Notes: generated by a model not told the origin, from the sequence alone. DNA of 64,000 nt from Patescibacteria group bacterium (GCA_041649955.1 JBAZMD010000001.1:68079-132078), one strand, 5' to 3'. Positions 1,231-40,657 are shown, counted from the stretch's first letter. A program made the numbers and translations.

Positions 1231-1385
1231 GTAGCGAAATAAATTTCGCTACAAATTTGAGTACCCCGTCTCCAAACCTGTCAACAAAATAAATATTGTT
1301 AATGTAAATAAGCCGCAGGCGTTACCGTGAGTTAAATTCACGATTATCTCAAAATTTTATTCGGGTTTGGGGCGTGGGTTAACGT
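1231..1385 (+). repeat. intergenic repeat family A, copy 1 (~155 bp; begins with agcgaaataaatttcgct hairpin, ends ttcgggtttggggcgtgggt)
   Basis: Two other copies at 38050-38202 and 40508-40657, all in plus orientation; conserved UNCG hairpin aagccgNaggcg. Confidence 0.6.
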
Positions 1386-1412
1386 GTCTATATTTTATCA
1401 GAAATAAACGAT

Positions 1413-1440
1413 TTGACAAGTATAAAATTTTTGCTATAAT
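1413..1440 (+). promoter_or_regulatory. sigma70-type promoter TTGACA-16nt-tgcTATAAT
   Basis: Consensus -35/-10 with TGn extended -10, 25 nt upstream of AAGGAGG RBS of small ORF. Confidence 0.5.
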
Positions 1441-1465
1441 AAATTTGAAATAAAGGAGGTGAAAA

Positions 1466-1642
1466 ATGATAGGCGGTATAATTCTTGTGGTAATTGGTTT
1501 TATATTATTTGAAGTTAGTTTTAGTTGGGATTTAAAAAATCTTGGTTCATTAAATCTCAATTTAATACAAGATTACGGGCCTCCAATAACAATAATATGC
1601 GCAGGCGCCATGATCTTAATAGGAATAAATAAAATCTTCTAA
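1466..1642 (+). CDS. small hydrophobic membrane protein (58 aa), below ORF-track cutoff
   Basis: ATG 7 nt after AAAGGAGGTG; two predicted TM segments; hairpin+T-run terminator after stop. Confidence 0.45.
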   Translation: MIGGIILVVIGFILFEVSFSWDLKNLGSLNLNLIQDYGPPITIICAGAMILIGINKIF

Positions 1643-1744
1643 AACTTTACCACTAAAATACAAAATAAGCATCCATTTAATATCGGGTGCTTATTTTTTT
1701 ATCCCGCACCTTCCTAATAAAAAAGATGCGGGATTTATTCTATT

Positions 1745-3073
1745 TTATTTCTTTTCAATTTTTGAAAAACCGCAATATTTTTGCAAGACTTCTGGAATCA
1801 AGATTGATCCGTCTTTTTGCTGATAATTTTCCAAAACAGCCAAAATCATTCTTCCCAAAGCCACGCCGGTATCATTAACAGTATAACAATATCCTTTTTC
1901 ATTATTATTTTTTTGATAGCGAATATTCAATCTTCTGGCTTGAAAATCAGTCGCGTTGGTGTCAGTCATTGTTTCCATAAATTCATTGGCCGCTATTCTC
2001 CAAGTTTCAACATCATATTGCTTGTGACTGGCGGCATAACCGGCATCACCGGTGCATTTTTGAATCACCCGATAAGGCATTTTAAGTTGTTGCAGCAACC
2101 ATTCATTAATAGACACCAATTCTTCAAAAATTTCATCTGCTTGCTCGGGAAGGCAAATAACGTCCATTTCCAATTTATCAAATTGATGGACTCTTTTTAT
2201 TCCGTGAACGTCTTTTCCCCAAGAACCGACCTCGCTTCTAAAACAAGAAGACAGAGAGCACATTTTAAAAGGCATATCTTTTTCTGAAAATCTTCTATCC
2301 ATTCCGTAGCCGAAAAGTGACGGCTCGGAAGAACCGACTAAAAATAATTTATTTTTATCTTCCACGTTTTCATCGCTGATTTTATAAACCTGATCATATC
2401 CTTCGGGAAAATGGCTGGTGCCAAAAAGCACTCTTTCTTTAACCATCAAAGGCACAACCATTGGCATGAACTTTCTTCTTAAAAGTTCTTTGAATAACAA
2501 ATCAATAATCGCAAATTGCAAAATAACCGCTTCTTTTTTTAAGTAACAAAATCTTGAACCCGAAGTCAGGGCGCTTTGTTCTACGTCAATAATATCCAAA
2601 TCTTTGCCCAATTCAATATGATCCTTGCCCGGAAAATCAGATTTCGGCATCTGAGCAACGACTTCAAATCCTTTTCCCAATAAAGATTTATCTAAATATC
2701 CTTTTTCCGGAGTCCAGACTCTGACATCAATATTATCGTCTTCGCTTTTGCCGATTGGCGTATCTTCGCTCATCAAATTGGGAACCCAAACAGCCAATTT
2801 GTCCATTTTAGTTTTAATTTCTTCAAGTGATTCTTCTGTGGTTTTTAATTTTTCTTTCAATTCTTTTCCTTTGGCTCTTATCGCTTCATCTTTACCGGCA
2901 GTTAAATTATTTCTCTCAGCGCGAATATTTTCCACTTCTGTTAATTTTTTTCTGTATTCTTCGTCCAATTCCAATAACGCATCCACATCAGCTTTTTGCA
3001 AATCCATTTTTCGATTGATAATATTTTGCTTGATTTTTTCTTTGTTTTCTCTGATGAATTTAATATCTAACAT
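1745..3073 (-). CDS. serS: seryl-tRNA synthetase
   Basis: 442 aa; N-terminal coiled-coil tRNA-binding arm plus class II core motifs. Confidence 0.9.
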   Translation of the reverse strand: MLDIKFIRENKEKIKQNIINRKMDLQKADVDALLELDEEYRKKLTEVENIRAERNNLTAGKDEAIRAKGKELKEKLKTTEESLEEIKTKMDKLAVWVPNLMSEDTPIGKSEDDNIDVRVWTPEKGYLDKSLLGKGFEVVAQMPKSDFPGKDHIELGKDLDIIDVEQSALTSGSRFCYLKKEAVILQFAIIDLLFKELLRRKFMPMVVPLMVKERVLFGTSHFPEGYDQVYKISDENVEDKNKLFLVGSSEPSLFGYGMDRRFSEKDMPFKMCSLSSCFRSEVGSWGKDVHGIKRVHQFDKLEMDVICLPEQADEIFEELVSINEWLLQQLKMPYRVIQKCTGDAGYAASHKQYDVETWRIAANEFMETMTDTNATDFQARRLNIRYQKNNNEKGYCYTVNDTGVALGRMILAVLENYQQKDGSILIPEVLQKYCGFSKIEKK

Positions 3074-3099
3074 AATGATTAAAAAAAATTATACATTTA

Positions 3100-3270
3100 T
3101 AGCGAAATTAGCTCGAACGAAGTCGCGGAAAAGCCTTAGAAAATTAAGGAGTTTTATTGAAAAATTCATCTGTTTGACGACCTCTTCGGGAGGAGTTATG
3201 AATTTTTCAAAATAAAACGAGTATAATTTTCAAGGTTTTGGAGCGCTGGAGTGAAAGCGAAATTCGCGGC
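3100..3270 (+). repeat. intergenic repeat family B, copy 1 (~170 bp)
   Basis: ~90% identical to 38612-38782; contains CCTCttcgGGAGG hairpin and SD-like gggaggag + ATG mini-ORF (MNFSK*). Confidence 0.6.
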
Positions 3271-3273
3271 TAT

Positions 3274-4734
3274 TTATAATTTGGGGCGCAAAATTGGGAA
3301 TAAAATAACTTCCCGAATATTGCAAGTATTGGTTAAAATAAGAGCCAATCGATCAATGCCAATTCCTTCGCCGGCTGTGGGCGGCATGCCGTATTTTAAA
3401 GCTTTAACGAAATCTTCATCAAGACCTTGCGCTTCTTGGTCCCCTTTTTCGCGCAGTTTATCTTGCTCGTCAAATCTTGATTCTTGATCCAAAGGATCGT
3501 TTAATTCTGAAAAAGCATTGCAAATTTCCATTCCGGCCACCAATAGTTGAAATCTTTCCACATAATTCGGATTATCAGGGCATTTTTTGGCCAATGGCGA
3601 AAGTTCAATCGGATGATGAATTAAAAAAGTCGGATTAATAAGTTTCGGCCTGACGCGCTCTTTAAAAAGTTCATCTAAAATTTTTCCTCTGTCCCATGAT
3701 TTTTCAACTGTTATGCCAAGTTTTTTCACTTGTTCAATCAATCCTTTTAAATCGCGGTATTCTTCAATATCAAGGCCTGTTTCATTTTTAATCGCTTGCC
3801 TGAATTCCAATCGCGGATAAGGCGGTTTGAAATTCAAAGTATTATTTTGATATTCAATGGTCAGTTTTCCTTCCAAATTAGACAACAAATATTCAAATAA
3901 TTCTTCGGTCAGTTTCATTAAAACATTATAATCGGCATAGGATTGATAAAATTCTATTTGGGTAAATTCAGGATTGTGAGAAGCATCAATGCCTTCATTG
4001 CGGAAACATTTTGCAATTTCATAAACTCTTTCAAATCCGCCGATAATCAATCTTTTTAAATAAAGTTCCGGCGCAACTCTTAAATATAAATCAATATCCA
4101 AAGCGTGATTATGAGTGACAAACGGCCTGGCAATTGCTCCGCCGGCTATTGCTTGAAGAACAGGCGTGCTGACTTCCATATAATCCCGCTGATTGAAAAA
4201 ATCTCTGATTAATTGTATCATTTTCGTCCTTTTGACAAAAATATCTCTTACTTCTTGATTGGCAATTAAATCCAAATATCTTTGACGATATCTTGTTTCC
4301 ACATCAGACAAGCCGTGCCATTTTTCAGGAAGCGGTAAAAGAGCCTTGGATAAAAGTTTCCAACTCGTCGCTTTAATTGTTTTCTCGCCTCTTTTGGTAA
4401 TAAAAAGATGACCCTTGATTTCCAAAAAATCGCCGACATCAATATTTTCATTAAAAAACTGATATTCTTTTTCTCCAACATTATCTTGAGCGAAAAAAAT
4501 CTGAAAACGGCCGGTTCCATCTTCCAGATTGGCAAAACACGCCTTGCCGTGAAGCCGCAATAAAACCAAGCGTCCGACTAAACTTACCAAAATTTCTTTT
4601 TCCGATAATTTATCAAAATCATCAATCGCTTGTTTTACGGTATGAGACCTCTCGGATAAAGCCGGATACGGATTAACTTGGCTTGATTTAATTTTTTCTA
4701 ATTTTTCTATTCTTGATTGTTCTTCGTTAGTCAT
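3274..4734 (-). CDS. lysS: lysyl-tRNA synthetase (class II)
   Basis: 486 aa; N-terminal OB anticodon-binding domain and class II catalytic motifs. Confidence 0.9.
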   Translation of the reverse strand: MTNEEQSRIEKLEKIKSSQVNPYPALSERSHTVKQAIDDFDKLSEKEILVSLVGRLVLLRLHGKACFANLEDGTGRFQIFFAQDNVGEKEYQFFNENIDVGDFLEIKGHLFITKRGEKTIKATSWKLLSKALLPLPEKWHGLSDVETRYRQRYLDLIANQEVRDIFVKRTKMIQLIRDFFNQRDYMEVSTPVLQAIAGGAIARPFVTHNHALDIDLYLRVAPELYLKRLIIGGFERVYEIAKCFRNEGIDASHNPEFTQIEFYQSYADYNVLMKLTEELFEYLLSNLEGKLTIEYQNNTLNFKPPYPRLEFRQAIKNETGLDIEEYRDLKGLIEQVKKLGITVEKSWDRGKILDELFKERVRPKLINPTFLIHHPIELSPLAKKCPDNPNYVERFQLLVAGMEICNAFSELNDPLDQESRFDEQDKLREKGDQEAQGLDEDFVKALKYGMPPTAGEGIGIDRLALILTNTCNIREVILFPILRPKL

Positions 4735-4796
4735 AAATTTATGGTTAAAATAGATGTAATTATTATAACATTATTATAAAATATTATCAACAACTA

Positions 4797-4825
4797 AAAA
4801 TGACCCTTTAAAGGGTCATTTTTAT
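4797..4825 (-). terminator. perfect hairpin aaaaatgacccttTAAagggtcattttt, bidirectional rho-independent terminator
   Basis: 11-bp stem flanked by A/T runs immediately after greA stop. Confidence 0.6.
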
Positions 4826-4841
4826 TGATAAAATAATTATT

Positions 4842-5300: not shown

Positions 5301-5480
5301 ATAGATTCATTATTATTTATTGTTTGTTACTCCATTCATTCCCGCCGCTACACGGCGGTATTTCTGGAGACAAACAATAAAATTAAAAAAACACCGAGTT
5401 AATTGGTATTAGTTTATATTATTATAGCAGGTATCCTGCAAAAGTCAAATCCCCTTGTGGAAAACTTTTTACTCCAAATA

Positions 5481-7406: not shown

Positions 7407-7429
7407 AAAAAATACTTTTTATTACTGTT

Positions 7430-7930: not shown

Positions 7931-7938
7931 AAATTACA

Positions 7939-8742: not shown

Positions 8743-8759
8743 ATTGATTATTTAAAGAT

Positions 8760-10340: not shown

Positions 10341-10351
10341 AGTAAAATTAT

Positions 10352-10951: not shown

Positions 10952-10986
10952 AATAAATTATATTTTATAAATTTATAAAAATTCTA

Positions 10987-13900: not shown

Positions 13901-16900
13901 CTAGTGCCGCATTTTTGAATTATTATATTTTTATTGGCAGCAGTATCAGTATTATTGGTGGTATCAATCACTACTTCCCGATTAAATCGAGCCCTGATTT
14001 GCGCTTGAGTGCAAGCGTCAGTAGATTGACTGGATGGCGAAGGTGATTGATCTCCCAATTTGCATTCACTGCAACCAGATTCTTCAGATACTTGCGGCGG
14101 TCCGCCCGGAGAAACTGTCAATAAAGCGCAAGTGCGCGGCTCTGTATAAGTACATACATTATCGCCCGTCGAAGCCATAATTAAAGATTGACCAAAATCT
14201 TTGGGTTTAGCAATTGTAGATAAACCGCTTGATGGTGAAATTGTGGCAATATTTGTTTTTGCGGAAGTCCAATTAAAACTATCCACGCAAATCTGGCGGC
14301 CATTTGAATCTAAAGCTGAAGCACCAAATGTCGGTGTTTGATTTAATCCATTAACTGTTAAATCAGTCGGAATAACTTTTATTGTTGTGATACGACATGT
14401 TCCATCTCCGGTAGTAAAATCCCAAGCAGTATCGTTCATAGAAACTCCCATTTTACTTATAGCTCCGCTTCCATATATTCCTCCCTTGACCCATATTTTA
14501 TAAGTAGAATTTGGATTTAGTTGACAGCCGGAAGGATAAAAATCAGTAGTTGTTTCTTTCTTAATATTATCATCAACGCTGGTGATTCTGCCCTTAACTT
14601 GATGAGGAGCTAAAATATCTTCTTCGGTTAAAGCTTTATTATAAATACGAACTTCGTCAATAACGCCTCTAAAATTAGAGTAATAGCATGATCCAAATTT
14701 TGGATCTGGACAGAGAGAATCTGCGTAAGATTGCCGGCCGATTACCAAATTGCCGGCATTGACTAAAGATTTTTCTCCAAATGTTTTTAGTTGAATACCG
14801 TCTAATTTTCCATTAACATAAATTTTAAGATTTTCTCCGTCATAAGTTGCTGTAATGCGATAAAAAACATCTTCTGATAACCATGTTGAACCGCGTACAT
14901 TAGTAAGATCAGGATGTATTCCAGTTCCCACTACGAAACCCGGCTGCCATTGACCGGTGTTTGGGCCTTTTCTATATAAATCCAATACATAGTTATTTCT
15001 TGCCGTCATACCCTCATCCCCTTTGGCTAAAATAACCAGTCTGCCCTTGTCAGGATCAGTAGAAGTGTCTTTTTTAATTTTTATAAAAACATCTAATGTT
15101 AATTTTTGCAAATCTAAAGAAGAACTATCAGGAATAGTTATATAATCACCATCGTCGCCTAGAGCACCATCAAATTCTAAAGCTTTTCCAAATTTTCCAT
15201 TAACCCAAGCTGCTCCGGAAATTGTTCCGTCATTTAACCCTTTCGCATCTTCAACGATTAATCCTGCTCCTTTGTTAAAATGCCAAAGCGCTACCATTCC
15301 TTCTTCAAAATTAGTTTCATAACCCGGATCAACATCAGAAGACAATAATTTGATATTATCATTTAAAGAATTATGATCCATTAAATCATCGAAGGTCATT
15401 GAAACTGACGCATTTTTACAAACATTAATTTCTCCATCAGCGGGTGATTTGCTTGCATTTATTATAATTGGTTGAGGATAACAGCATTTATTCGGATCTA
15501 AGATACCGCAACCGGCGCCGGTACCGCATTGAGCATCATTTTTGCAACCGCAACAGAGACCGCGAGGATTATCCTCTGGACCCTTACAATTACCTTGATT
15601 GGCTAAACAAGTTAAACCGACAGCGCAAGAATTCTGTTGTTTAGGATTGCAGCAACAACGACAAGTGTCAGCACCGCTTAAACATTTATAAGGCGCTGAA
15701 CAACTGCCTGAATTATTCGGACAAGATACATCTTGGCATTTATCTCCGGGTTTTGGCGCTCTATGTAAAACTTCAAAAGGCAAACTATTGCTTGTCCCGC
15801 TGGAATTTTTTACCACCACATTACCCTTTTGAGCGTCAGCCGGCACAAAGACTTCTATAATTTGCGTATCAGACCAATTTGCATCTAAAAAATCAGCAAC
15901 TACTTGATTATAAAAAATTATTTTGCTGCCGTCATTTTTTGTACCGAATCTTAAACCATTAAAACTGACTTTTGTTTCGCTTGGATCGCCTTTTGGATAA
16001 CCGCTGGAAGGATTAATTGACAAAAGACACGGACCGGATGATTCACTATTATCATTAACCAAAAATTTATCCCAACTCACAGTTTCTGATTTGCTGGCAT
16101 CTCCATCATAAGTAATCCCCACTTTAACGCCCAATGAATCCGAAATATCAGTTGCCGGATCGCCAAAAACCGCAGGAATAACCGTGGTAATAAAATCCGG
16201 ACCGGATGATTCTACGATTGCATTTATTGGCCCATCTTCTCCATTTGGTCGGGACTCAGCAGGCGGAATAACCGGATATTTATCATCAAATTGAAATTTA
16301 GTTATAGTCGCCGGACGATTAGTGGTGCCAGTAAAACAGCGGCCAAAAACAGTTACGCAACTTTTTCGTGAACCGGAATCGGGCGTTACTTTATAAATTA
16401 CCGGCGAACAAGCGCATTTGGTCAAATCAGTGGTTGTAAAATCCCAATCTTTGCCGAGTTTATTTTGATCAACATCCATTATTAAATCAGTAGTTGCGCT
16501 GATATAATAAGAAGTGCCGACAGTCAAATTATTATTTAATTTAATTTCAAAAACCTTAAATTGAGTGGAAATATTTTCAATATCAGCGTCAATAACTTTA
16601 ATTTTTCCAATCGTATTTTTGCCATCTTCGGTCGTGACGGATGCTTCAATTTCTTTCGGTTTAATAGAGCCTTGGAAAACAATATTTTTTCCGATTTTAC
16701 CCTGAATCGTTACCGTATTATCGTACATACTGGTGGCGAAGCTGACGCCAATCGGTTCGTCCGGACAAACATTTTTATCCTTTGGCCAATAATCGCTGAT
16801 CCCCGGAACAATATCATTTGTTTCAAATTTCCAAGATTGCGGCGCAGCCATTGGATTACCGCATAAATCTTTAACATTGGCCACGGTGATTTTATACCAA

Positions 16901-18643: not shown

Positions 18644-18649
18644 ATTTAC

Positions 18650-18815: not shown

Positions 18816-19034
18816 TTACTTAATTTTACCAAGTTTTCTTAAATATTCCATTTTCTCGCGAGACGATTTTCTGCACAAAGCGCTTGCTCTGCGAAGAAGC
18901 TTGCTTTGCGGTTTAACATAAAATTGGCCTTTTTTGGCAAGGTCAAGCACGCCGCTTCTTTTAATGCGTTCGCTGAATCTTCTTAAAAAAATATTTAAGG
19001 ATTCGTTTGGTTTTCTTTTAAGTTCAATACTCAT
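18816..19034 (-). CDS. rpsU: 30S ribosomal protein S21
   Basis: 72 aa, basic, canonical S21 sequence. Confidence 0.85.
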   Translation of the reverse strand: MSIELKRKPNESLNIFLRRFSERIKRSGVLDLAKKGQFYVKPQSKLLRRASALCRKSSREKMEYLRKLGKIK

Positions 19035-21296: not shown

Positions 21297-23756
21297 TTAT
21301 TTACTAATCGGCAAGGTGAAACAAAAAGTCGTGCCTTTATTTTCTTCGCTTTCAAACCAAATTTTTCCGCCGCTTACTTCCACTAACCCCTTGGCTAAAT
21401 AAAGTCCAAGACCGGTTCCCGGTTTTTGGCTAACATTATCAGCTCTGAAAAATCTGGAGAAAATTTTTTCTTGCTGGGATTTTGGTATACCCATACCCTG
21501 ATCGGAAGTTTGATAAAGTATTTCTTCTCCTTTTTGTTCAATTTTTATTTTTATTTCCGAATTATCCGGAGAATATTTAATGGCATTATCCAATAAAATA
21601 ATAATCACTTGGCGAATTTTCTCCTCGTCAATTTTAACTTTCGGTAAAAGAACTGGCGGTTTTTCCACATTTAATTTAATATTTTTCTTTTCCAAATACG
21701 GTTTATATTCGTCCAAAATAGAATTCACTAATTCTTCAATTTGTTTTTCTTCTGTTTTAAAAACCAATCTGCCTGCATCAAGCCGCGAAACATTAAGCAG
21801 ATCATTGACCAATTCCACCATCCTTTCGCTTCCGCGATGAATTCTCTCAACTTCTCCTTTTTCTTTGTCGTCTAATTTTTTACCAAGTGTTTGAAGCAAG
21901 GCTTCCGCCCCCCATTTAATAATAGTCGCCGGCGTTCTGAGCTGATGAGAAGCCAAAGAAATAAATTGAGATTTAAGTTTGTCAATTTCTCTCTCTCGAG
22001 TAATATCGCGCAATACTACCACTCCGCCGATAATTTGGCCATTTTCATCTTTCAAGGGCGCGGCTGAACTGGCAATCGGCACCTCTTTTCCGTCGCTGGT
22101 AAACAAAATAGATGGATCAATCAAATTGGTTAATTTTCCGCTTACTAAAGCTTGACTGATAAAATCTTTATTTTCCGTTTTATCTTCTTCTTTAAAAATT
22201 TTAAGAATTTGATCATAGGGCTTACCTAAACAATCTTTCTCCAGAAAACCCGTGATTCGCGTGATAGCCGGATTAATAAGAGCCAATCTTTTTTCCGAAT
22301 CAATCACAAAAACGCCGTCACCGATGCTGATTAAAATTGTTTCCAATCTGTTTTTTTCTTGTTCAATTTCCGCTTTGGCTATTCTCAATTCTTCGGTTCT
22401 TTCTTTTACTTTTTGTTCCAAAGTTTCATAATAAGCCCTCAATTTCAAAGTCATCTGATTAAAACTGTCGGCCAATTGTTCAATTTCGTCGCGGGTATTT
22501 ATTTTTATTTGATAAAATAAATTTCCTTTGCTGATTTCTTCCGCGCCTCTGGTTAATTTTTTAATCGGCGCGCTGATTGCTCTAGAACTGAAAAAAGCCA
22601 AAATAATCAAAATGATTGCCAAAACCAATAAAACAATAAAAATAAAATTTTTGGTATTTTGAGCGCTAGCAATTACCTCATTTACCGGAACCACTAATCC
22701 CAAACTCCAACCCGTATCTTTAATTGGATAATAAGCGATATATTTTTCTGATTGGTTGAATTTAATTGTTTCAATGCCGTTCTTGCCTTTAATCATGGAC
22801 ATTACCGCGTATTTCAAATCAGGATTGGAAGTTTCCAGCAAACTTGATTTTCTGATTTCGGAAATTCCCAATTGTTCGTCATTTATTCCCAAATCAGCCT
22901 GAGCTCGCACCGGCAAGCTTATTAATCTGGCTTCTTTGTCAATCATAAAAGCATAACCGGTTTTCCATAATTTAATGTCCAAAATGCGATTAGTGATATC
23001 TTCCAAAGTCAAATCAATGCCGGTTAACATTTTCATTTTATCATTTTGATAAACCGGGGCCAAAGCTGAAATCATCAAGCCATGACCGGTTACGTCAACG
23101 TATGGCGGCGTCCATTTGGCAAGTTTATTCGGATTGTTAATCTCGGTTAAATCATCCCAAAACGGAGCGGCTACGCCATCTTTATTGGCATCAGCCGGTA
23201 AAACATCCATGGCAAAACCGCCTTGATTATCAGGATTAGGATCGGAATTCGGATAAAAACGATACCAGCAATATTTATTGCCGATAATATAAATATTATC
23301 AGTATTCGGATTTTCATTTTTTATCGTCGGAAAAATAAAATCCAAATCAGCTGATAAATTCAAATCATTTTTTACTTGGTCATCAAGCGGACACCAATTA
23401 AAAACAATGACTGATGAAACTTCGTCGGCCGAATTTCCGTATTGCCCTTCCGGTCCTCTAAATAAACTGTCTGTTGACCAATAGTCCGGATGATAAAAAA
23501 GATCCGGGTTATTGAAAACATTGGTGGCAAAATCAGCCAAATTTTTGCTGGCCGAACTCACTTTTGATAATGATAAATTAATTTTATCAGCCTCGCTCTG
23601 TGAAAGACTTTTCAAGCGATTGGTGGCTTCATTCTCCAATTCTGTCGTTGTTTTGGAAATGGAAATAAAACCGATCAAAGCAATCGGCAATAAAGCAAAA
23701 AGGGTAAATATTAAAATCAATTTAATATTAAGCCCGAATTTAAACTTCTTTTTCAT
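21297..23756 (-). CDS. sensor histidine kinase (Cache-like periplasmic domain, HAMP, PAS, HisKA, HATPase_c)
   Basis: 819 aa; two TMs, H-box SHQLRTP, N/G1/G2 boxes. Confidence 0.85.
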   Translation of the reverse strand: MKKKFKFGLNIKLILIFTLFALLPIALIGFISISKTTTELENEATNRLKSLSQSEADKINLSLSKVSSASKNLADFATNVFNNPDLFYHPDYWSTDSLFRGPEGQYGNSADEVSSVIVFNWCPLDDQVKNDLNLSADLDFIFPTIKNENPNTDNIYIIGNKYCWYRFYPNSDPNPDNQGGFAMDVLPADANKDGVAAPFWDDLTEINNPNKLAKWTPPYVDVTGHGLMISALAPVYQNDKMKMLTGIDLTLEDITNRILDIKLWKTGYAFMIDKEARLISLPVRAQADLGINDEQLGISEIRKSSLLETSNPDLKYAVMSMIKGKNGIETIKFNQSEKYIAYYPIKDTGWSLGLVVPVNEVIASAQNTKNFIFIVLLVLAIILIILAFFSSRAISAPIKKLTRGAEEISKGNLFYQIKINTRDEIEQLADSFNQMTLKLRAYYETLEQKVKERTEELRIAKAEIEQEKNRLETILISIGDGVFVIDSEKRLALINPAITRITGFLEKDCLGKPYDQILKIFKEEDKTENKDFISQALVSGKLTNLIDPSILFTSDGKEVPIASSAAPLKDENGQIIGGVVVLRDITREREIDKLKSQFISLASHQLRTPATIIKWGAEALLQTLGKKLDDKEKGEVERIHRGSERMVELVNDLLNVSRLDAGRLVFKTEEKQIEELVNSILDEYKPYLEKKNIKLNVEKPPVLLPKVKIDEEKIRQVIIILLDNAIKYSPDNSEIKIKIEQKGEEILYQTSDQGMGIPKSQQEKIFSRFFRADNVSQKPGTGLGLYLAKGLVEVSGGKIWFESEENKGTTFCFTLPISK

Positions 23757-25343: not shown

Positions 25344-25378
25344 ATAATAGCAAAAATTTTGATTTTTGTCAATCCCCT
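25344..25378 (-). promoter_or_regulatory. stereotyped promoter GGGGATTGACAAAAATCAAAATTTTTGCTATTAT (read on minus)
   Basis: TTGACA-17-TGcTATTAT; one of >12 near-identical promoters. Confidence 0.55.
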
Positions 25379-26237
25379 ATTTTTGTTCTTCTTGCTTCCT
25401 AGATTGTACAATTATAGCTTTTTCTACTAGTTCAATATCATTAGGAAGTTTCTTCGCTTCAAAGTCGCCATTATTATCTTGTGAACTAATTTTTTCATAA
25501 AGTAACTTTAATCTATTTTGTTTTTCATCAGTAAGATTCCAACCTTTTTTGAAATCTTCCGTAGATAAAGGGATGTCATATCTGTATAAAATTTCGTTTT
25601 TAATAAAACCGGCATTTTTTAATAATTCTAATAAGGCTTGTTCATCTGTGATAAATTTTTCAACTGCTACTTTTTCTGCAATAATCTTTTCCCTTTCTGT
25701 ATAAAGATAATTAGTCATTTGATTATTTCGAACGGCCGGTGAAACTAAAGCGGATAAAATAAGCTTGCCATCATTTTTTAAAACCCTATTCACTTCTGAT
25801 AGAGCTTTTATCTGTAAGGGTTTTGGAAGATAATCTAAAACCTGTTTTATGGTAATTATGTCGACTGATTTATCATTCAGGGGAATGTCAATAATATCCC
25901 CTGGAAGTTTATCATAACCCTTTTTATCAGGAATCTCATTAAGCATGTCTAGATTCCTGTCAATAAAAATTGTTTTAATGTTAATTCCTTTGTCTTTTAA
26001 TTTCTTCTCAAATTCTTTATTAAAAAAATCCCCGCATATTCCGGGACCGCAACCAATATCAGCTAAAATAATTTCTTTTTTCTTAGCTATTTCTTCAAGA
26101 TCTAAACCGCGAAACATATTCTCTAATACGTCTTCTCTGGCCTGATAACCACGCAAGGATTCTCTATAATTTTTTATCCTCCAAGTATCTCTTGAAACAA
26201 TGTCGCCAGTTGAAACTCCTTTTTCAATATTTGTCAT
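25377..26237 (-). CDS. class I SAM-dependent methyltransferase
   Basis: 286 aa; motif I ILADIGCGPG, post-II LKNDGKLIL. Confidence 0.7.
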   Translation of the reverse strand: MTNIEKGVSTGDIVSRDTWRIKNYRESLRGYQAREDVLENMFRGLDLEEIAKKKEIILADIGCGPGICGDFFNKEFEKKLKDKGINIKTIFIDRNLDMLNEIPDKKGYDKLPGDIIDIPLNDKSVDIITIKQVLDYLPKPLQIKALSEVNRVLKNDGKLILSALVSPAVRNNQMTNYLYTEREKIIAEKVAVEKFITDEQALLELLKNAGFIKNEILYRYDIPLSTEDFKKGWNLTDEKQNRLKLLYEKISSQDNNGDFEAKKLPNDIELVEKAIIVQSRKQEEQK

Positions 26238-36800: not shown

Positions 36801-37808
36801 CGTAGCTGTTTGACTGCTTAACTTGGAGGGCGCCACATAAGTCGCGCCGGCCGGGGTGCTGAATTGTATATTATAACTTCCGGTCGCACTTAATAATAAA
36901 GCATATTTGCCATTGGAATGAGTTTCCCCAAGCACGACATTTCCCATTTGTCCGGGCGTAAAAGATTCAACCTGGACTCTATCTATGTCACCGGCCGTAT
37001 CTGAGGTAAGACTACCTATAAATATGCCTTGCGTGCTATTCCAAATTATAAATGGTCGTGAATCTGAAACACGACGCGTATTCAAATCACTAATTATTAT
37101 ATCTACGCGGCCGTTTAATCCGGTTGGAATTGTAGCCGTAAGTTCAGTAGCTCCGGCAGTTGCAGGCGTGGATGTTACACTTCCTCCGTTAAAATTCCAA
37201 TATATTTCTGTTGCGTCAGTTGAGGTGGAATAATTAGAACCGGTAATCGTTACTGTATCGCCGACATTGCCGCACGGATAACCATTGCAAAGATCAGACT
37301 CAGTAGTATTGGTTATATAATTGATAATCGGATCAATAGAAGCGCTAACAGTATTGTTGGCAGTAAAATCTTCTATAGTTTGAGTTCCTGCTAAATTTTT
37401 AATATCTCCGGCTGTCATCTGCCAAGTTTGTCCTTCGCTTAATTTTAAATTTTTTAAACCGTAAATTCTTAAACGATAATCATTCTCGCCCGCCTGAATA
37501 CTTTGAGTTGACATATCATAAGGACTGAATCGACTTAATGTTCTGTCTGTTAATCCCGCTCCTGTTTCAAAAATAAAATTACGCAAATCTGTCGCGTAAT
37601 TGGTTGCACTTCCTGCTTCGGTTGTTGAAGATGGGGTTGTTTCTGCGGAAAATTGTCCGTTGAATGTAATTTCCGCTGAAGTTGTCGAGACCGTAATATC
37701 GGTCACGGCTATTGGTGCTAATGCACTCACTGATGTGGACAGCCCCATTGACCACAACATGGTCGTGGCTGTCACAAAAATTGAAAAAAACTTTTTTGTG
37801 TTGTTCAT
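30882..37808 (-). CDS. giant (2308 aa) secreted surface protein with many Ig-like/CarboxypepD_reg-like beta-sandwich repeats, Gly-rich segment and triple C-terminal ~50-aa module
   Basis: N-terminal signal peptide; SGTVKSPSGATLLEGVEVVA-type repeats; C-terminal GxLxKxxxSxxVYxIxNGxK modules shared with 8760-10340. Confidence 0.7.
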   Translation of the reverse strand: MNNTKKFFSIFVTATTMLWSMGLSTSVSALAPIAVTDITVSTTSAEITFNGQFSAETTPSSTTEAGSATNYATDLRNFIFETGAGLTDRTLSRFSPYDMSTQSIQAGENDYRLRIYGLKNLKLSEGQTWQMTAGDIKNLAGTQTIEDFTANNTVSASIDPIINYITNTTESDLCNGYPCGNVGDTVTITGSNYSTSTDATEIYWNFNGGSVTSTPATAGATELTATIPTGLNGRVDIIISDLNTRRVSDSRPFIIWNSTQGIFIGSLTSDTAGDIDRVQVESFTPGQMGNVVLGETHSNGKYALLLSATGSYNIQFSTPAGATYVAPSKLSSQTATVGSVATLATQAFRTATLSGTVKSPSGATLLEGVEVVARPYTWDYEQRTTTGPNGTWKLYVPNDTSSQCYEIEARPKDYQDRVLQYKSVRTSQCLTSGQTATGININLSAQNVKVTIKAPGTLGDTATASNPQPGLPVPYANIGLHTMDWSYNQWAQTDADGIVYFGGVTDSTHYILEIEPPYSGDFRSYPRTRTAEFAIDVTDGQITDLGNKTFALPNVFGKVKCGGVTTVAWINMDKDGSWYGVNTDDSGNFSLGGVALGTYNLRIQPASGSACASGNFSVSITSTTSNDLKDQADTLDSVDDDAFTLSAPNVTGVVKDPTGTTGQSGIWIDFCPYQSAGSCYGASAQSDGTFSLNVPTGSWNFNVNTQYGSLYAAPQGMVVSVAGTTITEVSDPGTALTIANNSLLVLLSDPTVNGLTGRVCKPKHDDNSTVTQAECDDPVGYPDIGATNVGINMRSQGSMSGSQWSQTDANGNYAIGGVTIGTYEVEANPWNGCGNITCGRKLVQNVTVTSSQSSRTKNIILSTPNISGTVVIPNTTTTVANAWINFHIEGPMQGGTTGGWYGTNTNQNGQFSFGGVTAGTYALEIEAPRWGTPEEQAVYRNYSTKKYSNITISSAVAAGTSNLDLGVTYGTGGKLILGTPQVTGRVMNPGADEVAGTADDQPVQWSWIMIHDQMWQNQGGASTDDQGYFRIGGLTNATGLSMEINLPWGGEKAWIQPSGLTVDVADDVGTVKVANVAQANNLITLTVPTKTLTGTVTKKGSGALVANARVQANRDMGGGHFETLTNSSGEYTLKLAGGGWWLSVNPDWSMGQPDWVYNESPKRTTFTEDGSTECRGTVGNCPGGATILDAGLDFEVQVANAIITGLVKDPTGATAIANSWVMANSGGMMGGGNGANTDSDGRFTFKVPAGTYDLVANPNWGEQGQSYGGSTPVKIKAISEQTTDAGTLILTAKNAHIKGTVTDSAGNAIGSVMVNAWQMNGPGWANTQTDSNTGRFDLTVSEGNWGVMIMPMSTQYIYQGGPQQVTITANQTSDNNDFLLKVADGLLKVNVVDADGNRVSDIWGGVWVKDTDPTVNDFIDFGDPKMMAGGSGDAGSGGTAVGGGSGGGGAMGAGMDKGGFAGGGLANGYTEIKVPLGSYELGLNTPPGSKYTLTVTKTVTVGESDTCTDETTGCKEIDLVVAPNNATIEGKFYLDTNSDSSYTAGTDTVVTGVRAFINGDKENGGWSQTEFAPSSVNDKYSLKVSAGSWYVDAFIDPMMNFGDDNDKYKIVAEDVKSTVIADSTTTRNFQLKKLDKTISGTITDPDDVGMSGVWVYADFGDETTKNDFKGPGGLGVGTFTGNDGTYTLNVTSGTFKIGAGIPPWDARDLINPPLLSVTVGDSNVTGKDLQFSLSDATITGEVTLDSVRKQAMIQAWSEDKGTGTMASDGTYTLKVKSGETWYVKATAKIDGVLYESAATEVITVAGAQTKNLTLVTTGLAVPEAKTTTFNASDSKTIELTNGLTLEIPAGALASSGTVTVTITPTVGDENQTTVSVKPDAKDKPLGVNYDFTAKDSTGQEITQFDNDVKITFPYDPDLITDYGYTEADITPKYFDDTTNTWENYKSVVRDATNNVIIVTTNHFTPGGITGGKFVTAGGDSTPMSGSSGGGGNAGNLGPKDLSLKINSGAAKTTSRNVTLNITATDAAEMMISNTIDFVGINWEPYQATRSWLLPVGKGEKVVYIRFRDKTFNLSSIISAIIISESEETAEVITYNLKNRDLVICPTCTAQPGAVYMILDGKAHVFPHLNVYLSWGYPSNFSTVKKVTSEEFAKYSEGVAMTFRDGSLFRGKTTSLHGLSASAVFMVSDGKLRPVKSSAIYQKLFNDPKWKLVTWVPDDLLSKFNYPLGDTIDSTTKHPNGTLVKYTGTSQIYLIQNGKKYKLSAKALTNNGYSKVPVMTISKAETYSDGGTISDFAENLVTPKFLAAK

Positions 37809-38049
37809 AGTTTTTCTAAAAAATAAATTTAATAAAAATATATTTAAAATTTCTAATTAGTAAAAACTCCCCCTATCTAAATAATCTTATTTTAATTTAC
37901 GAGTGAGTGAAAGAAAAGCAAAATTAATTTACTTTTTCAAATGAAGAAAATATAAAATTTAATGTCTTTTTATTATAACACTTTAAAAAATGAAAGGGTG
38001 GGGATGGTTGTGGATAACTTCCAAGGTTATCAAAAATTGCGAGTTTAAA

Positions 38050-38202
38050 AAACAAAGCAATTTTTGCTATAACCTTGAGAATCCCGCTTCAAATCTCTGA
38101 ATAAAATTGGTTTAAAAACCAAAGTAAGCCGAAGGCGTTTCCGCGGGATAAATTAAATTATTTTTAAAAAACTTTTTTTGGATTTGAGGCGTGGGTTACC
38201 GT
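38050..38202 (+). repeat. intergenic repeat family A, copy 2
   Basis: Aligns with 1231-1385 and 40508-40657. Confidence 0.55.
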
Positions 38203-38224
38203 AAATTTTAGTCCCCTTTTATTA

Positions 38225-38252
38225 GTTGACACATTTTTTAAATATGCTATTA
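38225..38252 (+). promoter_or_regulatory. promoter TTGACA-16-TGcTATTAT for the Lrp-like gene
   Basis: consensus boxes 45 nt upstream of AAGGAGG RBS. Confidence 0.5.
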
Positions 38253-38299
38253 TATATAAATAATTATTTTAAAAATCAAAATAATTAAAAGGAGGAGAA

Positions 38300-38542
38300 A
38301 TGGAAAAAGTAGAGGCTCATGTCTTTTTAAAAGTAAAAACTTCGGAAGAGGCAGCGGAAAAAATATTGAAAACATTACGCTCTATTGAAGGAGTGGTTAG
38401 GGCGAATATGGTAACGGGGATTTACGATATGATTGTCAATGTTAAGAGTGAAAATCTCAAAACGCTGGGAGAACTTATTGCATGTAAAATCAGTAATATA
38501 GAAAATGTAATATCCAGTATTACCTGTATTGTTGTAAAATAG
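38300..38542 (+). CDS. stand-alone Lrp/AsnC C-terminal (RAM) ligand-binding domain protein
   Basis: 80 aa; VFLKVK...IEGVVRANMVTGIYDMIV pattern typical of RAM domain. Confidence 0.65.
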   Translation: MEKVEAHVFLKVKTSEEAAEKILKTLRSIEGVVRANMVTGIYDMIVNVKSENLKTLGELIACKISNIENVISSITCIVVK

Positions 38543-38554
38543 CCCAGACAAAAA

Positions 38555-38590
38555 AGGTCCTGCAAGAAATTGCAGGCCTTTGATTTTTAA
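38555..38590 (+). terminator. rho-independent terminator aggtcctgcaaGAAAttgcaggcct + T-run
   Basis: 10-bp stem followed by ttgattttt. Confidence 0.65.
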
Positions 38591-38611
38591 TCCTTCATCC
38601 CTCCACGCTTG

Positions 38612-38782
38612 TGGCGAAATTCGCCTGAACGATGTCGCGGAAAAACCTTAGAAAATTAAGGAGTTTTATTGAAAAACTCATCTGTTTGACGACCTATTTG
38701 GGAGGAGTTATGAATTTTTCAGAATAAAACGAATATAATTTTCAAGGATTTAGAGCGTTGAGTGAAGGTGAATTTTGCAACA
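38612..38782 (+). repeat. intergenic repeat family B, copy 2
   Basis: ~90% identity to 3100-3270. Confidence 0.6.
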
Positions 38783-38785
38783 CTT

Positions 38786-39673
38786 TTATTTTTTTCTTAA
38801 TTGATAAATGGTGTAGAATTTGGAAAAAGCGGGATGTTTAACCGGCTCTTTTATTTTTTTAACAATCGTAAAATATTTTTTAACCAGCCGGTCAAACATT
38901 TTTTCCGGCAGCATAGTAACGCGATGCGGCTGATTGTAAAAATCAAAAGTCATTAAATCATATTCTTTTTGAGTGATTTCTTTGTTTTTTAATTTCTCGC
39001 CTAAAAACAGATTAAATTTGTTCATCTCGGTAGTGTATTCTTTCTTGTTGTAAAATCGCGGATCTGAATAAGCGCAGCTTTCCCAAATATAAATTTTATT
39101 ATTCAATGATTTGAAATAATTCGGCTGGCGCTTGCATTTTTCAATCACGCTTTCCGCGGTCTGCAATATCGGACTCGCGTTGGTAACGGTAATAATCAAT
39201 TCTCCTCCCGGTTTCAGAATAGTTTTCATTGCCTTAAAAAATTGTTCGTACAACTCAAGATTGACCAAATTATTGGTTACGGCATGGCCGATAATGCAAT
39301 CAAATGTTTTGGGAAGAAAATATTTTGTCGCTTCTGTCCAAAGACCGTTGGTTATTTTTTCTTTGCTTTCTATTTTTTTTAAACCGTTCATTGTTTCAAC
39401 CATATTTTGGCTGAATTCCAAAAGCGTGACCTTAAATTTCATTTTTGCCAGACAATCCCGAATGGCCGGCGTACAGCCTAAAACCAAGGCCTTATTGCCT
39501 GATTTCTTTTTAATGATTTTTAAAATTTTAGCGCAAGCGGCAATATGCTTTTTTGAAGGCACAAAAGGCGGCGGAATTTTGGCATAGGTTTGAGTATACC
39601 CTTCTTGCCACACTTTTTTATTTATTGCTTCTTTTTCCATGTTAGTTATTTTTTTAAAAAATAAATTGGGCAT
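38786..39673 (-). CDS. SAM-dependent methyltransferase (paralog group with 27197-28054, 39646-40479)
   Basis: 295 aa; ALVLGCTPAIRD...LKPGGELIIT. Confidence 0.6.
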   Translation of the reverse strand: MPNLFFKKITNMEKEAINKKVWQEGYTQTYAKIPPPFVPSKKHIAACAKILKIIKKKSGNKALVLGCTPAIRDCLAKMKFKVTLLEFSQNMVETMNGLKKIESKEKITNGLWTEATKYFLPKTFDCIIGHAVTNNLVNLELYEQFFKAMKTILKPGGELIITVTNASPILQTAESVIEKCKRQPNYFKSLNNKIYIWESCAYSDPRFYNKKEYTTEMNKFNLFLGEKLKNKEITQKEYDLMTFDFYNQPHRVTMLPEKMFDRLVKKYFTIVKKIKEPVKHPAFSKFYTIYQLRKK

Positions 39674-40479
39674 TGGTGAACAAAAGGATGATCTGTACCG
39701 TATTTAACGGCAGAAATCTTGAAATATTTTTTCATCATTTTCTCCCCTTCTTTTTCCGGCAGAGTCCACCAAGTTTTGCCCAACGGCCATTGTTGATGAA
39801 AAATCTTAATCAATTTGGCTATTTGCTTTTTTCTGGCCGCGTTCTTTTCATCTTGCCAAGATTTTTTAAGCGCTGAACTGATGCCGTCCGTACTCGTACT
39901 ACTGTCTTTTGCTTTCCAAACAACAAATAATCCGCCATAAGCAAATTCACTGATACTTTCTTGATTAAATTTTTTCTTAATCACGAGATTAATAAATTCT
40001 TGAATTGATTTTTTGGGAAAAATAGGAAAAAGATGGCGGGTAATAAAACAACCGCCCGGCTTTAAAACCTCTCTGATTTTAGCCAAAAATTTCGGCTGTA
40101 ATTTAATCGGAATATTACAAATAACAAAATCTCCCAGAACAAAATCATAATAATTTTGAGCCACGGGCATAGTCAGCCAGCCGGCCTTAATCCAAGTTTC
40201 CTTGTCTGCATTTTTTTGATATTTCACCCATTTGGTCATAGCCATTAGCATATCCAAACTAATATCAACGCAAGTCACTTCTGCTTTTTGGCGATGCACC
40301 AAGTCGCGAAATTCGGGCGTTCCGCCTAAAATCAAAATTTTAGCCGGTTTTTTATGTTGAGCAATGAATTTTTCTATAATCTGGCATTCGCTTTTTGACG
40401 GCCGGTTGGGCGGAGTATAAACTTGCCATTGATGTGCCATTTTTTGCGCGTGATAATAAGCTACTTTTGGTTCTGCCAT
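39646..40479 (-). CDS. SAM-dependent methyltransferase (paralog)
   Basis: 277 aa; ILILGGTPEFRD...LKPGGCFIT; overlaps downstream paralog by 28 nt. Confidence 0.6.
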   Translation of the reverse strand: MAEPKVAYYHAQKMAHQWQVYTPPNRPSKSECQIIEKFIAQHKKPAKILILGGTPEFRDLVHRQKAEVTCVDISLDMLMAMTKWVKYQKNADKETWIKAGWLTMPVAQNYYDFVLGDFVICNIPIKLQPKFLAKIREVLKPGGCFITRHLFPIFPKKSIQEFINLVIKKKFNQESISEFAYGGLFVVWKAKDSSTSTDGISSALKKSWQDEKNAARKKQIAKLIKIFHQQWPLGKTWWTLPEKEGEKMMKKYFKISAVKYGTDHPFVHQCPIYFLKK

Positions 40480-40507
40480 AATTGTCGATTTAGATCCGCC
40501 AACTGGC

Positions 40508-40657
40508 GGAGAAATAAATTTTCGCTACAATTTATGAGCACCCTGCTTCAAACCTCTAAACAAAATCAGTTCAAAGATAGCGTAAGCCGAAGGCGTTTCC
40601 ATGAATTAAATTAATTATTTTTTCACGAACCTTCTTCGGGTTTGGGGCGTGGGTCGC
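40508..40657 (+). repeat. intergenic repeat family A, copy 3
   Basis: Between two MTase genes; conserved gaaataaattttcgctac and ttcgggtttggggcgtgggt. Confidence 0.55.

Follow-up and report, generated by a model that had tools for sequence, protein, structure and literature searches.

Two families of repeats, A and B, in a 64,000-nt stretch of DNA from a Patescibacteria group bacterium (GCA_041649955.1 JBAZMD010000001.1:68079-132078; the whole stretch is called the window) are probably small, non-coding, non-autonomous insertion elements of a narrow Patescibacteria lineage. They belong to a known kind of small mobile element rather than to a new class of RNA. Every copy forms a discrete block of 170-190 nt that some strains carry and close relatives lack at the corresponding site. 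A sequence-only reading had described three copies of A and two of B, all in the same orientation, and both families stand far above chance; the A signature words TAAGCCGNAGGCGTT and GGRTTTGRGGCGTGGGT occur three times each, compared with 0.2-0.3 expected. The three A copies are 176-190 nt long and about 75-80% alike (mean column identity of about 80%), and the two B copies are 171-174 nt long and about 90% identical; all are on the + strand (Table 1). The true extent of A goes further 5' than the core first delimited. A fourth A locus, A4, is known in the locus L003. The assignments of the surrounding genes (alr, serS, lysS, methyltransferases, and an 80-aa protein with an AsnC/Lrp ligand domain) were confirmed.

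Table 1. Copies of A and B, their internal features, and adjoining promoters (window positions).
Feature	Position	Strand	Remark
A1 with 5' extension	1200..1385	+	start approximate; core of the sequence-only reading 1231-1385
A1 internal palindrome AGCGAAAT-AA-ATTTCGCT	1233-1250	+	
A1 closing helix	1262-1277 pairs with 1364-1380	+	
Back-to-back promoter pair adjoining A1	1392..1440	both	
Minus promoter TTGTCA-16-TAAAAT	1419 to 1392	-	reads into the A1 reverse complement, then alr
Plus promoter TTGACA-16-TATAAT	1413-1440	+	predicted to drive the small membrane ORF
B1	about 3097/3101..3270/3271	+	171-nt insertion
A2	38009..38202	+	core 38050-38202
A2 5' extension hairpin GATAAC...GTTATC	38013-38031	+	otherwise found only in A4 of L003
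Promoter pair after A2, equivalent to that at A1	38205-38253		
B2	about 38609/38610..38782/38783	+	
A3	40480..40655	+	176-nt insertion; core of the sequence-only reading 40508-40657/60

Empty-site DNA was compared for two insertions, A3 and B1, both of which are flanked by short direct repeats of the target DNA (5 bp and 6 bp, respectively). Such short repeats are the usual footprint of staggered-cut transposition, either cut-and-paste or replicative. A3 lies between two perfect copies of GCCAT (40475-40479 and 40656-40660, 5/5), the left of which is the reverse complement of ATGGC, i.e. the start codon of the methyltransferase gene MTase2 plus 2 nt. The A3 site is empty in two relatives. In L004, the DNA reads CTGCCAT followed directly by AAAATAA, and in the ERZ1426824 strain, as judged from spacer length, 9 nt precede MTase2 compared with 190 nt here, the difference of 181 nt being equal to 176 + 5. 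B1, which is missing from the lysS-serS spacer of the sister strains L002 and L005, is flanked by ATTTAT as read from the sequence (3095-3100 and 3272-3277, 6/6), and the second copy holds the lysS stop codon.

The footprints of the other copies are less clean. The flanking pentamers of A1, AACAT (1195-1199, holding the alr start codon) and AACGT (1381-1385), match at 4/5 positions in a register read by homology to A3. The right hexamer of B2, TTTTAT (38784-38789), holds the stop codon of MTase1 in the same register as at B1, and its left hexamer, GCTTGT, is a decayed repeat that matches at 3/6 positions here and 4/6 in L004, where the same-site copy of B2 (516-707) is 92% identical. At A2 and A4, no clear flanking repeat is seen. 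Clean flanking direct repeats are limited to A3 and B1, and a 5-bp repeat could also stem from microhomology-mediated insertion or deletion. The insertions lie exactly at gene boundaries: because the duplicated target contains a start codon (A3 and probably A1) or a stop codon (B1, with B2 in the same register), the neighbouring ORFs are intact. The earlier statement that B copies lie 3 nt past the lysS and MTase1 stop codons is correct. The parallel statement that A copies lie just 5' of minus-strand starts applies to A1 and A3, at roughly 30 nt from the start codons of alr and MTase2, and fails for A2, which is 240 nt from the nearest minus-strand start.

The distribution among strains is patchy. 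In the ERZ1426824 strain, the gene order is as here (lysS-serS-small ORF-alr and MTase2-MTase1-AsnC-like), and A1, A3, B1, and B2 are apparently absent, judging from gene coordinates and spacer lengths (52 vs 200 nt at the B1 site, 111 vs 266 nt at the A1 site, and 65 vs 243 nt between MTase1 and the AsnC-like gene at the B2 site). L002 and L005 carry A1. In more distant relatives, lysS-alr or serS-alr are adjacent with spacers of 13-17 nt and neither A nor B; where Alr is about 62% identical, lysS adjoins alr with nothing between, and A was not found in next-level-out relatives (Alr 61-65% identical). A and B are confined to one narrow, species-level to genus-level group of Patescibacteria. 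All the material scanned holds four distinct A loci and two B loci, a copy number that looks low and is unusual for an active MITE family, and the counts are biased downward because assemblies break inside A. Covariance models found no further copy of A or B in the window or within 10 kb past its left end.

The proposal that the repeats are MITE-like fits B well. Both families are under about 500 bp, non-coding, and present or absent at the same sites. B also has imperfect terminal inverted repeats of 12-13 nt built on GCGAAATTNGC, which in B1 read AGCGAAATTAGCT on the left and AGCGAAATTCGCG on the right of the + strand. AGCGAAATTAGCT matches the reverse-complemented right end, CGCGAATTTCGCT, at 10/13 positions, and the corresponding match in B2 is 10/12. 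Over its full length, the element folds as a single hairpin of roughly 60 bp (MFE of -54.8 kcal/mol, z = -4). Because of these terminal repeats and the single long hairpin, in addition to the 6-bp duplication and the presence/absence pattern, we regard B as MITE-like. Smaller features that had been noted in B have fared less well. Of the two copies, only B1 has an intact CCTC-ttcg-GGAGG hairpin, which a C-to-A change disrupts in B2. A mini-ORF with a Shine-Dalgarno-like sequence is unsupported because all substitutions are non-synonymous (5/5 differences between B1 and B2 in the 31-aa ORF, with no coding signal there). The missing Shine-Dalgarno sequence before serS carries no meaning, since most genes in the window also lack one.

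For A, the MITE label applies in part: it is a discrete insertion with a 5-bp repeat, but the ends set by the empty site of A3 (AATTGTCG... and ...GGCGTGGGTC) are not inverted repeats, and the left arm of its 16-bp inverted repeat is internal. Without terminal inverted repeats, A falls outside the classical MITEs. The A core is closed by a 16-bp helix that is fully paired on the + strand only (64/64 cells, compared with 53/64 on the minus strand). It pairs in all four known copies, with two compensatory columns, and the one-sided changes are all C/U interchanges opposite G. The covariation support for the helix is weak (four sequences; 29-42 of 500 shuffles attain the observed values). Two conserved blocks, TAAGCCGNAGGCGTT and AAYAAAAT, remain unpaired. 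A has no coding potential, with stops in all frames, and carries an internal back-to-back pair of a GCGAAAT half-site that, from the sequence, is common to A and B; the GATAAC and GCGAAAT palindromes are confined to the elements. The "perfect" 5' hairpin first described is perfect in A1 (8 bp), shorter and in another register in A2 (5 bp), and interrupted in A3. The "UNCG-type" hairpin actually has a GNA triloop, not UNCG, on a 3-bp GCC/GGC stem.

All four known A copies, including A4, are antisense to the surrounding genes. Because every copy of both families lies antisense within a co-directional gene run, transcripts of the host genes probably run through the reverse complement of each element. 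The A transcript would then form a 5' leader or intercistronic spacer (alr, MTase2, a giant gene, and rny), and the B transcript a long 3'-UTR hairpin (lysS and MTase1). On the minus strand, a -10-like TAAAAT reads 2-12 nt before the A element, and A2 and A4 end in a hairpin with a U-rich tail. On the + strand, neither a sigma-70-like promoter upstream of any A copy nor a convincing terminator was found. GC skew indicates that the minus strand is the leading strand, opposite to the folding strand of A. At A1, 6 nt separate the -10 box TAAAAT from the upstream repeat copy, in which ATG has become ACG, and the insertion appears to have separated a leaderless alr from its promoter. The region of the back-to-back promoter pair is 98-100% conserved between strains. 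The small ORF adjoining A1 is a mosaic or hypervariable locus, implying frequent recombination there.

A Pfam search found no transposase, integrase, or reverse transcriptase encoded in the window, including no RAYT, TnpA, or Y1 transposase. A wider search of the window, 19 loci, GTDB representatives, and JGI metagenomes, with strict exact-match patterns for A only, yielded only the four A and two B loci rather than the many dispersed copies typical of MITEs, and an autonomous parent element with ends matching those of A or B was not found. A weak Y1_Tnp-like gene is present in the relative L008. We suggest that A and B are moved by a transposase encoded elsewhere in the genome or population, possibly one enzyme for both families because the GCGAAAT half-site is shared.

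The region 1168-1433, which includes A1, shows no mismatch to L002 and L005 (three strains), in which alr is 93% identical, serS 95%, and the adjacent terminator region 83-91%. The 3' 97 nt of A2 are 100% identical to L004, where the flanking coding sequence is 83-93% and the surroundings overall 80-93% identical. Overall, same-site copies of A are identical over 186-266 nt beside neighbouring coding sequences of 83-95% and other intergenic DNA of 80-91% identity. The identity tracts end within 32 nt to the left and 48 nt to the right of A1, and about 30 nt from A2. One sample holds two strain types with identical A2, and assemblies break inside A2. Copies of A within one genome differ by 20-25%, and complete same-site identity beside such a difference would not be expected if old insertions had simply decayed neutrally. 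Perfect identity amid 5-17% divergence of neighbouring genes implies either selection or recent spread: after insertion, A may have come under selection, e.g. as an obligatory leader, or may have spread very recently by recombination.

These two possibilities underlie different accounts of A. In one, which we consider possible but clearly less probable than the reading given at the outset, A is a young selfish element that moved horizontally between co-occurring strains very recently, by homologous recombination or homing-like copying into empty alleles; the identity of its same-site copies then stems from this spread and not from function, and the identity tract is a co-conversion tract. The short tracts ending near A1 and A2, the patchy distribution among similarly diverged strains, the identical A2 of two co-occurring strain types with its assembly breaks, and the recombining small ORF beside A1 are consistent with it. 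However, recombination would have had to break off very nearly at the borders of the element at each of two independent loci. The A1 tract also extends over promoters and the opening codons of alr, where constraint is to be expected in any case; neither a nuclease nor a guide was identified, and the flanks are not complementary to the element interior. In another account, which we think rather unlikely, A is a small family of functional structured RNAs kept by purifying selection, with the insertion history being the way in which the family spread. Read on the + strand, A would encode an sRNA antisense to the leaders of alr, MTase2, and the giant gene; read on the minus strand, it would instead be a shared regulatory element of the 5' leader. 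Consistent with this account are the same identity in less conserved surroundings, the + strand helix with its compensatory columns, the conserved unpaired blocks, and the -10-like and U-tailed signals of the minus strand. Against it, the + strand lacks a promoter and a convincing terminator, the best-folding strand differs from the one expected to be transcribed, close relatives keep the same genes without the element and next-level relatives also lack A, the downstream genes are functionally unrelated, the covariation is weak, and no Rfam family matches. The small-RNA family that had been proposed for A thus retains a strand-specific helix and perfect same-site conservation, but not the promoter and terminator of the folding strand or presence at the same sites in close relatives.

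In a third account, A (on the left) and B (on the right) delimit a single composite element or cassette that carried the genes between them (A1...small ORF and serS...B1; A2...AsnC-like gene...B2). The two blocks do share order and orientation, lysS is directly beside alr in the relatives with Alr about 62% identical, and the GCGAAAT half-site occurs in both families. Nevertheless, the ERZ1426824 strain has the same gene order with spacers too short for A1, B1, and B2 (gene coordinates only), L002 and L005 carry A1 without B1, A3 and A4 have no B partner, and A3 and B1 have flanking repeats of their own. The cassette is largely refuted and highly improbable, and the bracketing is coincidental. 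Insertion as separate small mobile elements remains the preferred reading. A more elaborate form of it, which we consider speculative, would make A an undescribed mobile element without terminal inverted repeats, in which the folded + strand is part of movement, and which inserts precisely at start codons and supplies a ready-made leader. Such an element would spread between co-occurring strains by a homing-like or co-conversion process, or would instead have undergone domestication to an antisense RNA or to an obligatory leader with a regulatory role, with B as a MITE that the same enzyme mobilizes via the GCGAAAT half-site. Homing-like spread, if true, would explain 100% same-site identity in genomes that are 5-17% diverged.

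Several known classes were considered. Searches on both strands matched neither A nor B to an Rfam family, whether at the gathering threshold or with E<=10, and the sensitivity of Rfam is limited in this phylum, because an apparent RNase P RNA in L012 was also missed. REP/REPIN elements were rejected because the units are 170-190 nt and low-copy and the window lacks a Y1 transposase; REP/BOX-type repeats, as had been proposed, are unsupported because size, copy number, and architecture are wrong. Integron attC sites or gene cassettes were rejected because the RYYYAAC / GTTRRRY core motifs are absent from the ends of A and B and the window has no integrase. An IS200/IS605-derived PATE was rejected because a 5-bp repeat flanks A3, the + strand folds while the minus strand is leading, and the window has no TnpA. 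An independent sRNA gene is not supported: no + strand promoter-like site precedes any A copy, and the elements are absent from close and distant relatives.

A resembles multi-copy bacterial sRNA families and riboswitch-like leaders in having few copies per genome that are 75-80% alike, perfect same-site conservation, and a helix kept by wobble and compensatory changes. A and B differ from them in that the folding strand has no promoter or terminator of its own, near relatives lack them at the corresponding sites, an insertion footprint is present, and there is no shared downstream function or Rfam match. Like PATEs and the REP/REPIN-RAYT system, A forms strand-specific hairpins, lacks terminal inverted repeats, keeps a single orientation, and codes for nothing. 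PATEs and REP-type elements cause no target duplication and insert beside a fixed tetra- or pentanucleotide, and REPs are very numerous units of 20-40 nt. The folding strand of A, opposite to the leading strand, is the reverse of the IS608 bias. A is also similar to pneumococcal BOX and other "small mobile sequences" without terminal inverted repeats in being modular, non-coding, and intergenic with a stable predicted structure. BOX-type sequences are co-oriented and co-transcribed with flanking genes, and their way of moving is not known. In contrast to BOX, A has no boxA/B/C modular homology, is flanked by a 5-bp repeat, and is low-copy.

The bacterial MITEs, such as Neisseria Correia elements (CREE/NEMIS), pneumococcal RUP, and enterobacterial ERIC/IRU, are non-coding intergenic sequences of 100-200 nt that form a long hairpin when co-transcribed. 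Their presence varies among strains, and they can supply or displace regulatory signals of their neighbours. A and B have no sequence similarity to them and number a handful of copies rather than tens to hundreds. In addition, A lacks terminal inverted repeats, the insertion sites coincide exactly with start and stop codons, the host is a Patescibacterium with a reduced genome, and the parent IS of A and B is not known. In size, non-coding content, intergenic position, and presence/absence among strains, A and B are nonetheless like these MITEs, and B also shares their terminal inverted repeats and short target duplication.

All copies of families A and B in the window lie on the plus strand (see the table), and the sequence-only reading of three A and two B copies in a single orientation was borne out. 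Each A signature word occurs three times (0.2–0.3 expected in shuffled sequence) and the B core twice (0 expected). The gene calls of that reading agree with Pfam, which identified alr, a 58-aa membrane ORF, serS, and lysS, as well as an 80-aa protein with an AsnC/Lrp ligand-binding domain and three class-I methyltransferases (MTase1, MTase2, and MTase3). The host is a Patescibacteria (CPR) bacterium, and the window has a G+C content of 35% with almost all genes on the minus strand. Because the GC skew of the plus strand is negative throughout, the minus strand is the leading strand.

Positions of the repeats and of other features in the window and in loci of related strains or metagenome contigs (L numbers)
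Feature	Location	Strand	Remarks
A1	window 1231-1385	+	three A copies: mean column identity ~80%
A2	window 38050-38202	+
A3	window 40508-40660	+
B1	window ~3097-3270	+	B1 and B2 ~90% identical
B2	window 38609-38782	+
A1 same-site copy	L005
A2 same-site copy	L004		cut by contig end; B2 also present
A4	L003, between rbfA and rny		antisense to genes
A1 closing helix	window 1262-1277 with 1364-1380	+
Region of small membrane ORF	window 1441-1700 (ORF 1466-1642)	+
Counterpart of membrane ORF	L002 4718-4912
Counterpart of membrane ORF	L005 2466-2630
Genes with TATAAT-like hexamer (examples)	window 21297-23756, 25377-26237, 18816-19034, 58476-59066
Word-repeat spacer	window 51215-51345		weak match at 51292
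Word-repeat spacer	L012 13950-14070		weak match at 13954-14064; TTAACGAG palindrome
Word-repeat spacer	L002 6340-6395
Word-repeat spacer	L003 4060-4150		weak match at 4049-4156
REP-like repeat	L014 12950-13120		more distant relative; inverted copies of AACCCCGTTAGAAAT upstream of groES
RNase P RNA-like sequence	L012 7530-8010		~2.5 kb left of window start, same genome; hallmark GGAGGAAAGUCCG plus word-repeat insertion
DGR-type reverse transcriptase	L003 64-1450		348 aa, LGNLTSQ motif; ~0.5 kb from A4; adjoins 82-aa four-helix-bundle Avd-like gene
MTase3	window 40670-41506		missing from L004; separate indel adjoining A3
PEP-utilizer/PPDK-fragment paralogues	window 41514-46868		several genes downstream of MTase3 with internal repeats (families D1, D7); copy number differs among strains
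Non-coding region upstream of alr	L017 30-230		Alr 65% identical; G+C-rich, ~200 nt, apparently structured; annotated as 59-aa gene; unrelated to A; no Rfam match

Judged from the aligned sites of related strains, both families are insertions. The filled A3 site in the window reads CTGCCAT, an insert running from AATTGTCG to GGCGTGGGTC, GCCAT, and AAAATAATTTT; the empty site in L004 passes directly from CTGCCAT to AAAATAAATTAT. A3 is a 176-nt insert with a 5-bp direct repeat on its flanks, which in the opposite strand reads ATGGC and comprises the start codon of MTase2 and the next two bases. In a second strain, ENA ERZ1426824, known from gene coordinates alone, the spacer ahead of MTase2 measures 9 nt, versus 190 nt in the window. 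The difference of 181 nt is exactly 176 + 5, and the window without the insert likewise retains 9 nt. B1 (171 nt) is missing from the lysS-serS spacer of strains L002 and L005, and it is bounded in the window by perfect ATTTAT repeats (3095-3100 and 3272-3277), the second of which contains the lysS stop codon. In B2, the right hexamer, TTTTAT, includes the stop codon of MTase1 at the corresponding position, and the left hexamer has decayed to a 3–4/6 match. The ERZ1426824 contigs keep the gene order with much shorter spacers (52 versus 200, 111 versus 266, 9 versus 190, and 65 versus 243 nt), from which this strain appears to lack B1, A1, A3, and B2. In relatives with Alr 61–65% identical, lysS or serS adjoins alr across spacers of 13–17 nt that contain neither A nor B. 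The site-by-site presence and absence in relatives indicates that the A and B copies bracketing genes are independent insertions at gene borders and not cassette ends. A composite A...B cassette was rejected on the lack of B1 in L002 and L005 and on the ERZ1426824 spacers.

B folds into a single end-to-end hairpin of approximately 60 bp (−54.8 kcal/mol, z = −4), with 57–59/60 cells paired on the plus strand versus 53–56/60 on the minus strand, a slight plus-strand advantage, and with one compensatory pair and several disruptions. Its termini are imperfect inverted repeats (TIRs) built on GCGAAATTNGC, which match at 10/13 positions in B1 and 10/12 in B2. The core of A is closed by a 16-bp helix, in which all 64 cells of the four distinct copies are standard pairs on the plus strand. 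On the minus strand, 53/64 cells pair, since the other 11 are plus-strand U-G pairs. Two columns changed on both sides, from C-G to U-A, and the one-sided changes are all C<->U opposite a conserved G. Minimum-free-energy folding recovers the helix in 4/4 copies for the plus strand and in just one or two for the minus strand. The observed values were attained in 29–42 of 500 shuffles, so that these controls on four sequences are suggestive only. The perfect 5′ hairpin described for A holds in A1 and not in the other copies, the supposed UNCG-type hairpin is actually a GCC/GGC stem with a GNA triloop, and the CCTC...GGAGG hairpin of B is intact in B1 and broken in B2. A1 contains the terminal half-site of B as an internal back-to-back pair (AGCGAAAT-AA-ATTTCGCT), and the GCGAAAT half-site shared by both families hints at a common mobilising enzyme.

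Further copies are few. One exact-pattern scan of the GTDB species representatives gave a single match, the A1 same-site copy in the sister strain L002, and one such scan of the JGI metagenomes yielded the three loci listed in the table. The covariance models built on A (R1) and B (R2) found no new A or B in the window, in 10 kb past its left end, or in 18 loci. Their weak matches in L003, L012, and the window were rejected as word-repeat spacers or as the palindrome, and that in L014 (12953-13070, 21 bits), which arose because its 5′ arm resembles that of the A helix (ACCCCGTCTCCAAACC), was rejected as a different REP-like repeat. The word-repeat spacers are a third type of intergenic filler, which differs among strains and consists of short repeated words, frequently in palindromic arrangement (AATTTCTAA, TTAACGAG/TTAACGGA, AGCTTAT/AGCTAAG). 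The AsnC-like protein and MTase1 had too few homologues for additional same-site loci to be recovered.

A search with 4227 Rfam models, as the sequence-only reading had proposed, gave no match to A or B on either strand, at the gathering threshold across the whole window or at E<=10 over both repeat regions. Rfam at the gathering threshold also failed to report the RNase P RNA-like sequence in L012, and its sensitivity is therefore limited in this lineage. ARAGORN detected tRNA-Gln alone. A has stop codons in 6/6 frames. B contains a 31–47-aa ORF whose end is the 5-codon MNFSK/E mini-ORF highlighted earlier. Neither is conserved coding sequence, because all substitutions are non-synonymous: 5/5 B1/B2 differences within the ORF and an ATTG-to-GCAA change in L004. 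Pfam identified no transposase, integrase, or reverse transcriptase gene within the window, blastn searches of phage and plasmid collections with A1 and B1 gave nothing meaningful, and an exact-pattern scan of viral contigs matched neither family. RNA-guided targeting of the bridge-RNA or omega-RNA type was rejected, since flank-interior complementarity was not beyond chance. A connection with the DGR reverse transcriptase beside A4 was also rejected, as the differences among the A copies show no TR/VR-like adenine specificity.

With the register taken from A3, A1 lies between AACAT, which reads ATGTT on the minus strand and begins alr, and AACGT; the two agree at 4/5 positions. The upstream copy is ACGTT in minus-strand reading and comes 6 nt after a TGnTAAAAT −10 box of that strand with TTGTCA as the −35 element. 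Before insertion, the alr ATG would have been at the expected transcription start, i.e., alr would have been leaderless, as many genes here probably are. After insertion, its leader would be approximately 186 nt, the reverse complement of A1, with the upstream ATG now ACG. A1 seems from this arrangement to have converted a leaderless essential gene to a leadered one. Across the window, an SD is absent from most genes, and the lack of an SD at serS, noted earlier, thus carries no weight. In many genes a TATAAT-like hexamer precedes the ATG by 5–9 nt, suggesting that leaderless mRNAs are widespread in this genome. A perfect GGAGG is found at a minority of genes, among them both plus-strand genes adjoining A. 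Because every copy is antisense within co-directional gene runs, the reverse complements of A and B are probably co-transcribed with host genes, in which A would form a leader or intercistronic spacer and B a 3′-UTR hairpin. The proposed position of A copies just 5′ of minus-strand starts fails for A2, where the next such start is 240 nt away.

The same-site copies of A are strikingly conserved. Positions 1168-1433, spanning A1, a 5′ extension, and back-to-back promoters, show zero differences across three strains, in which identity is 93% for alr, 95% for serS, 83–91% for the terminator region nearby, and 49–65% for the adjacent small ORF. In L004, the available 97 nt of A2 are identical, the surrounding coding sequences are 83–93% and the next spacer 80% identical, and B2 is an unremarkable 92%. 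A copies inside one genome differ by 18–25%. At A1 and A2 alike, the identity tract stops within 30–50 nt of the element. One sample contains two strain types whose A2 is identical, and three independent contigs (L001, L019, and L004) terminate inside A2 (window ~38091-38106), which fits an assembly-graph branch at a segment identical in co-occurring strains. Identity of the same-site copies amid diverged surroundings points to either strong selection or very recent exchange between strains. The small two-helix membrane ORF 3′ of A1 is hypervariable (32% amino-acid and 49–65% nucleotide identity between strains; flanking genes, 93–95%). The strains diverge from just past the conserved −10 box as far as the terminator, a pattern suggestive of cassette-like replacement or strong diversifying selection.

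We consider it probable that A and B are small non-autonomous insertion elements. B conforms to the MITE pattern in its TIRs, whole-element hairpin, 5–6-bp duplication, and strain polymorphism, and A, with its strand-specific folded core and 5-bp flanking repeat, is a TIR-less relative or associate. Two other readings of A are compatible with this insertion history. Selection on a functional RNA family would account for the same-site conservation and the closing helix, but the folding strand has no promoter, A is missing from near relatives, and the genes downstream are functionally unrelated, so that we regard this reading as unlikely. That A is a very recent, homing-like spreader, the exchange side of the same alternative, is somewhat less doubtful, though still not the reading we would expect to hold.

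The genomes of Patescibacteria (candidate phyla radiation) are very small and densely packed, and to our knowledge little seems known of the mobile DNA of this group beyond introns and diversity-generating retroelements. Our literature searches found no account of such repeats. As small insertion elements, A and B illustrate that spacers of merely 9–30 nt can take insertions of approximately 180 nt as long as the duplicated target restores the start or stop codon. Their interest lies in the host, in the insertion exactly on start and stop codons, and in the perfect conservation of same-site copies of A. If this conservation reflects function, A would exemplify a mobile element co-opted by a minimal genome as a leader RNA. 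Such repeats also break metagenome assemblies, as at A2, will be under-counted in them, may be taken for sRNA genes, and mark strain-level variation. Among known systems, an IS200/IS605-derived PATE was rejected because the strand bias is wrong (the plus strand folds, and the minus strand is leading), an integron attC because its core motifs are missing, and REP/REPIN and the Rfam families because each fails a tested defining feature. The nearest known elements to B are the bacterial MITEs (Correia, RUP, and ERIC), and the nearest to A are TIR-less small mobile sequences such as BOX. We regard A and B as additions to the known small mobile elements, with A bordering on a distinct variant.
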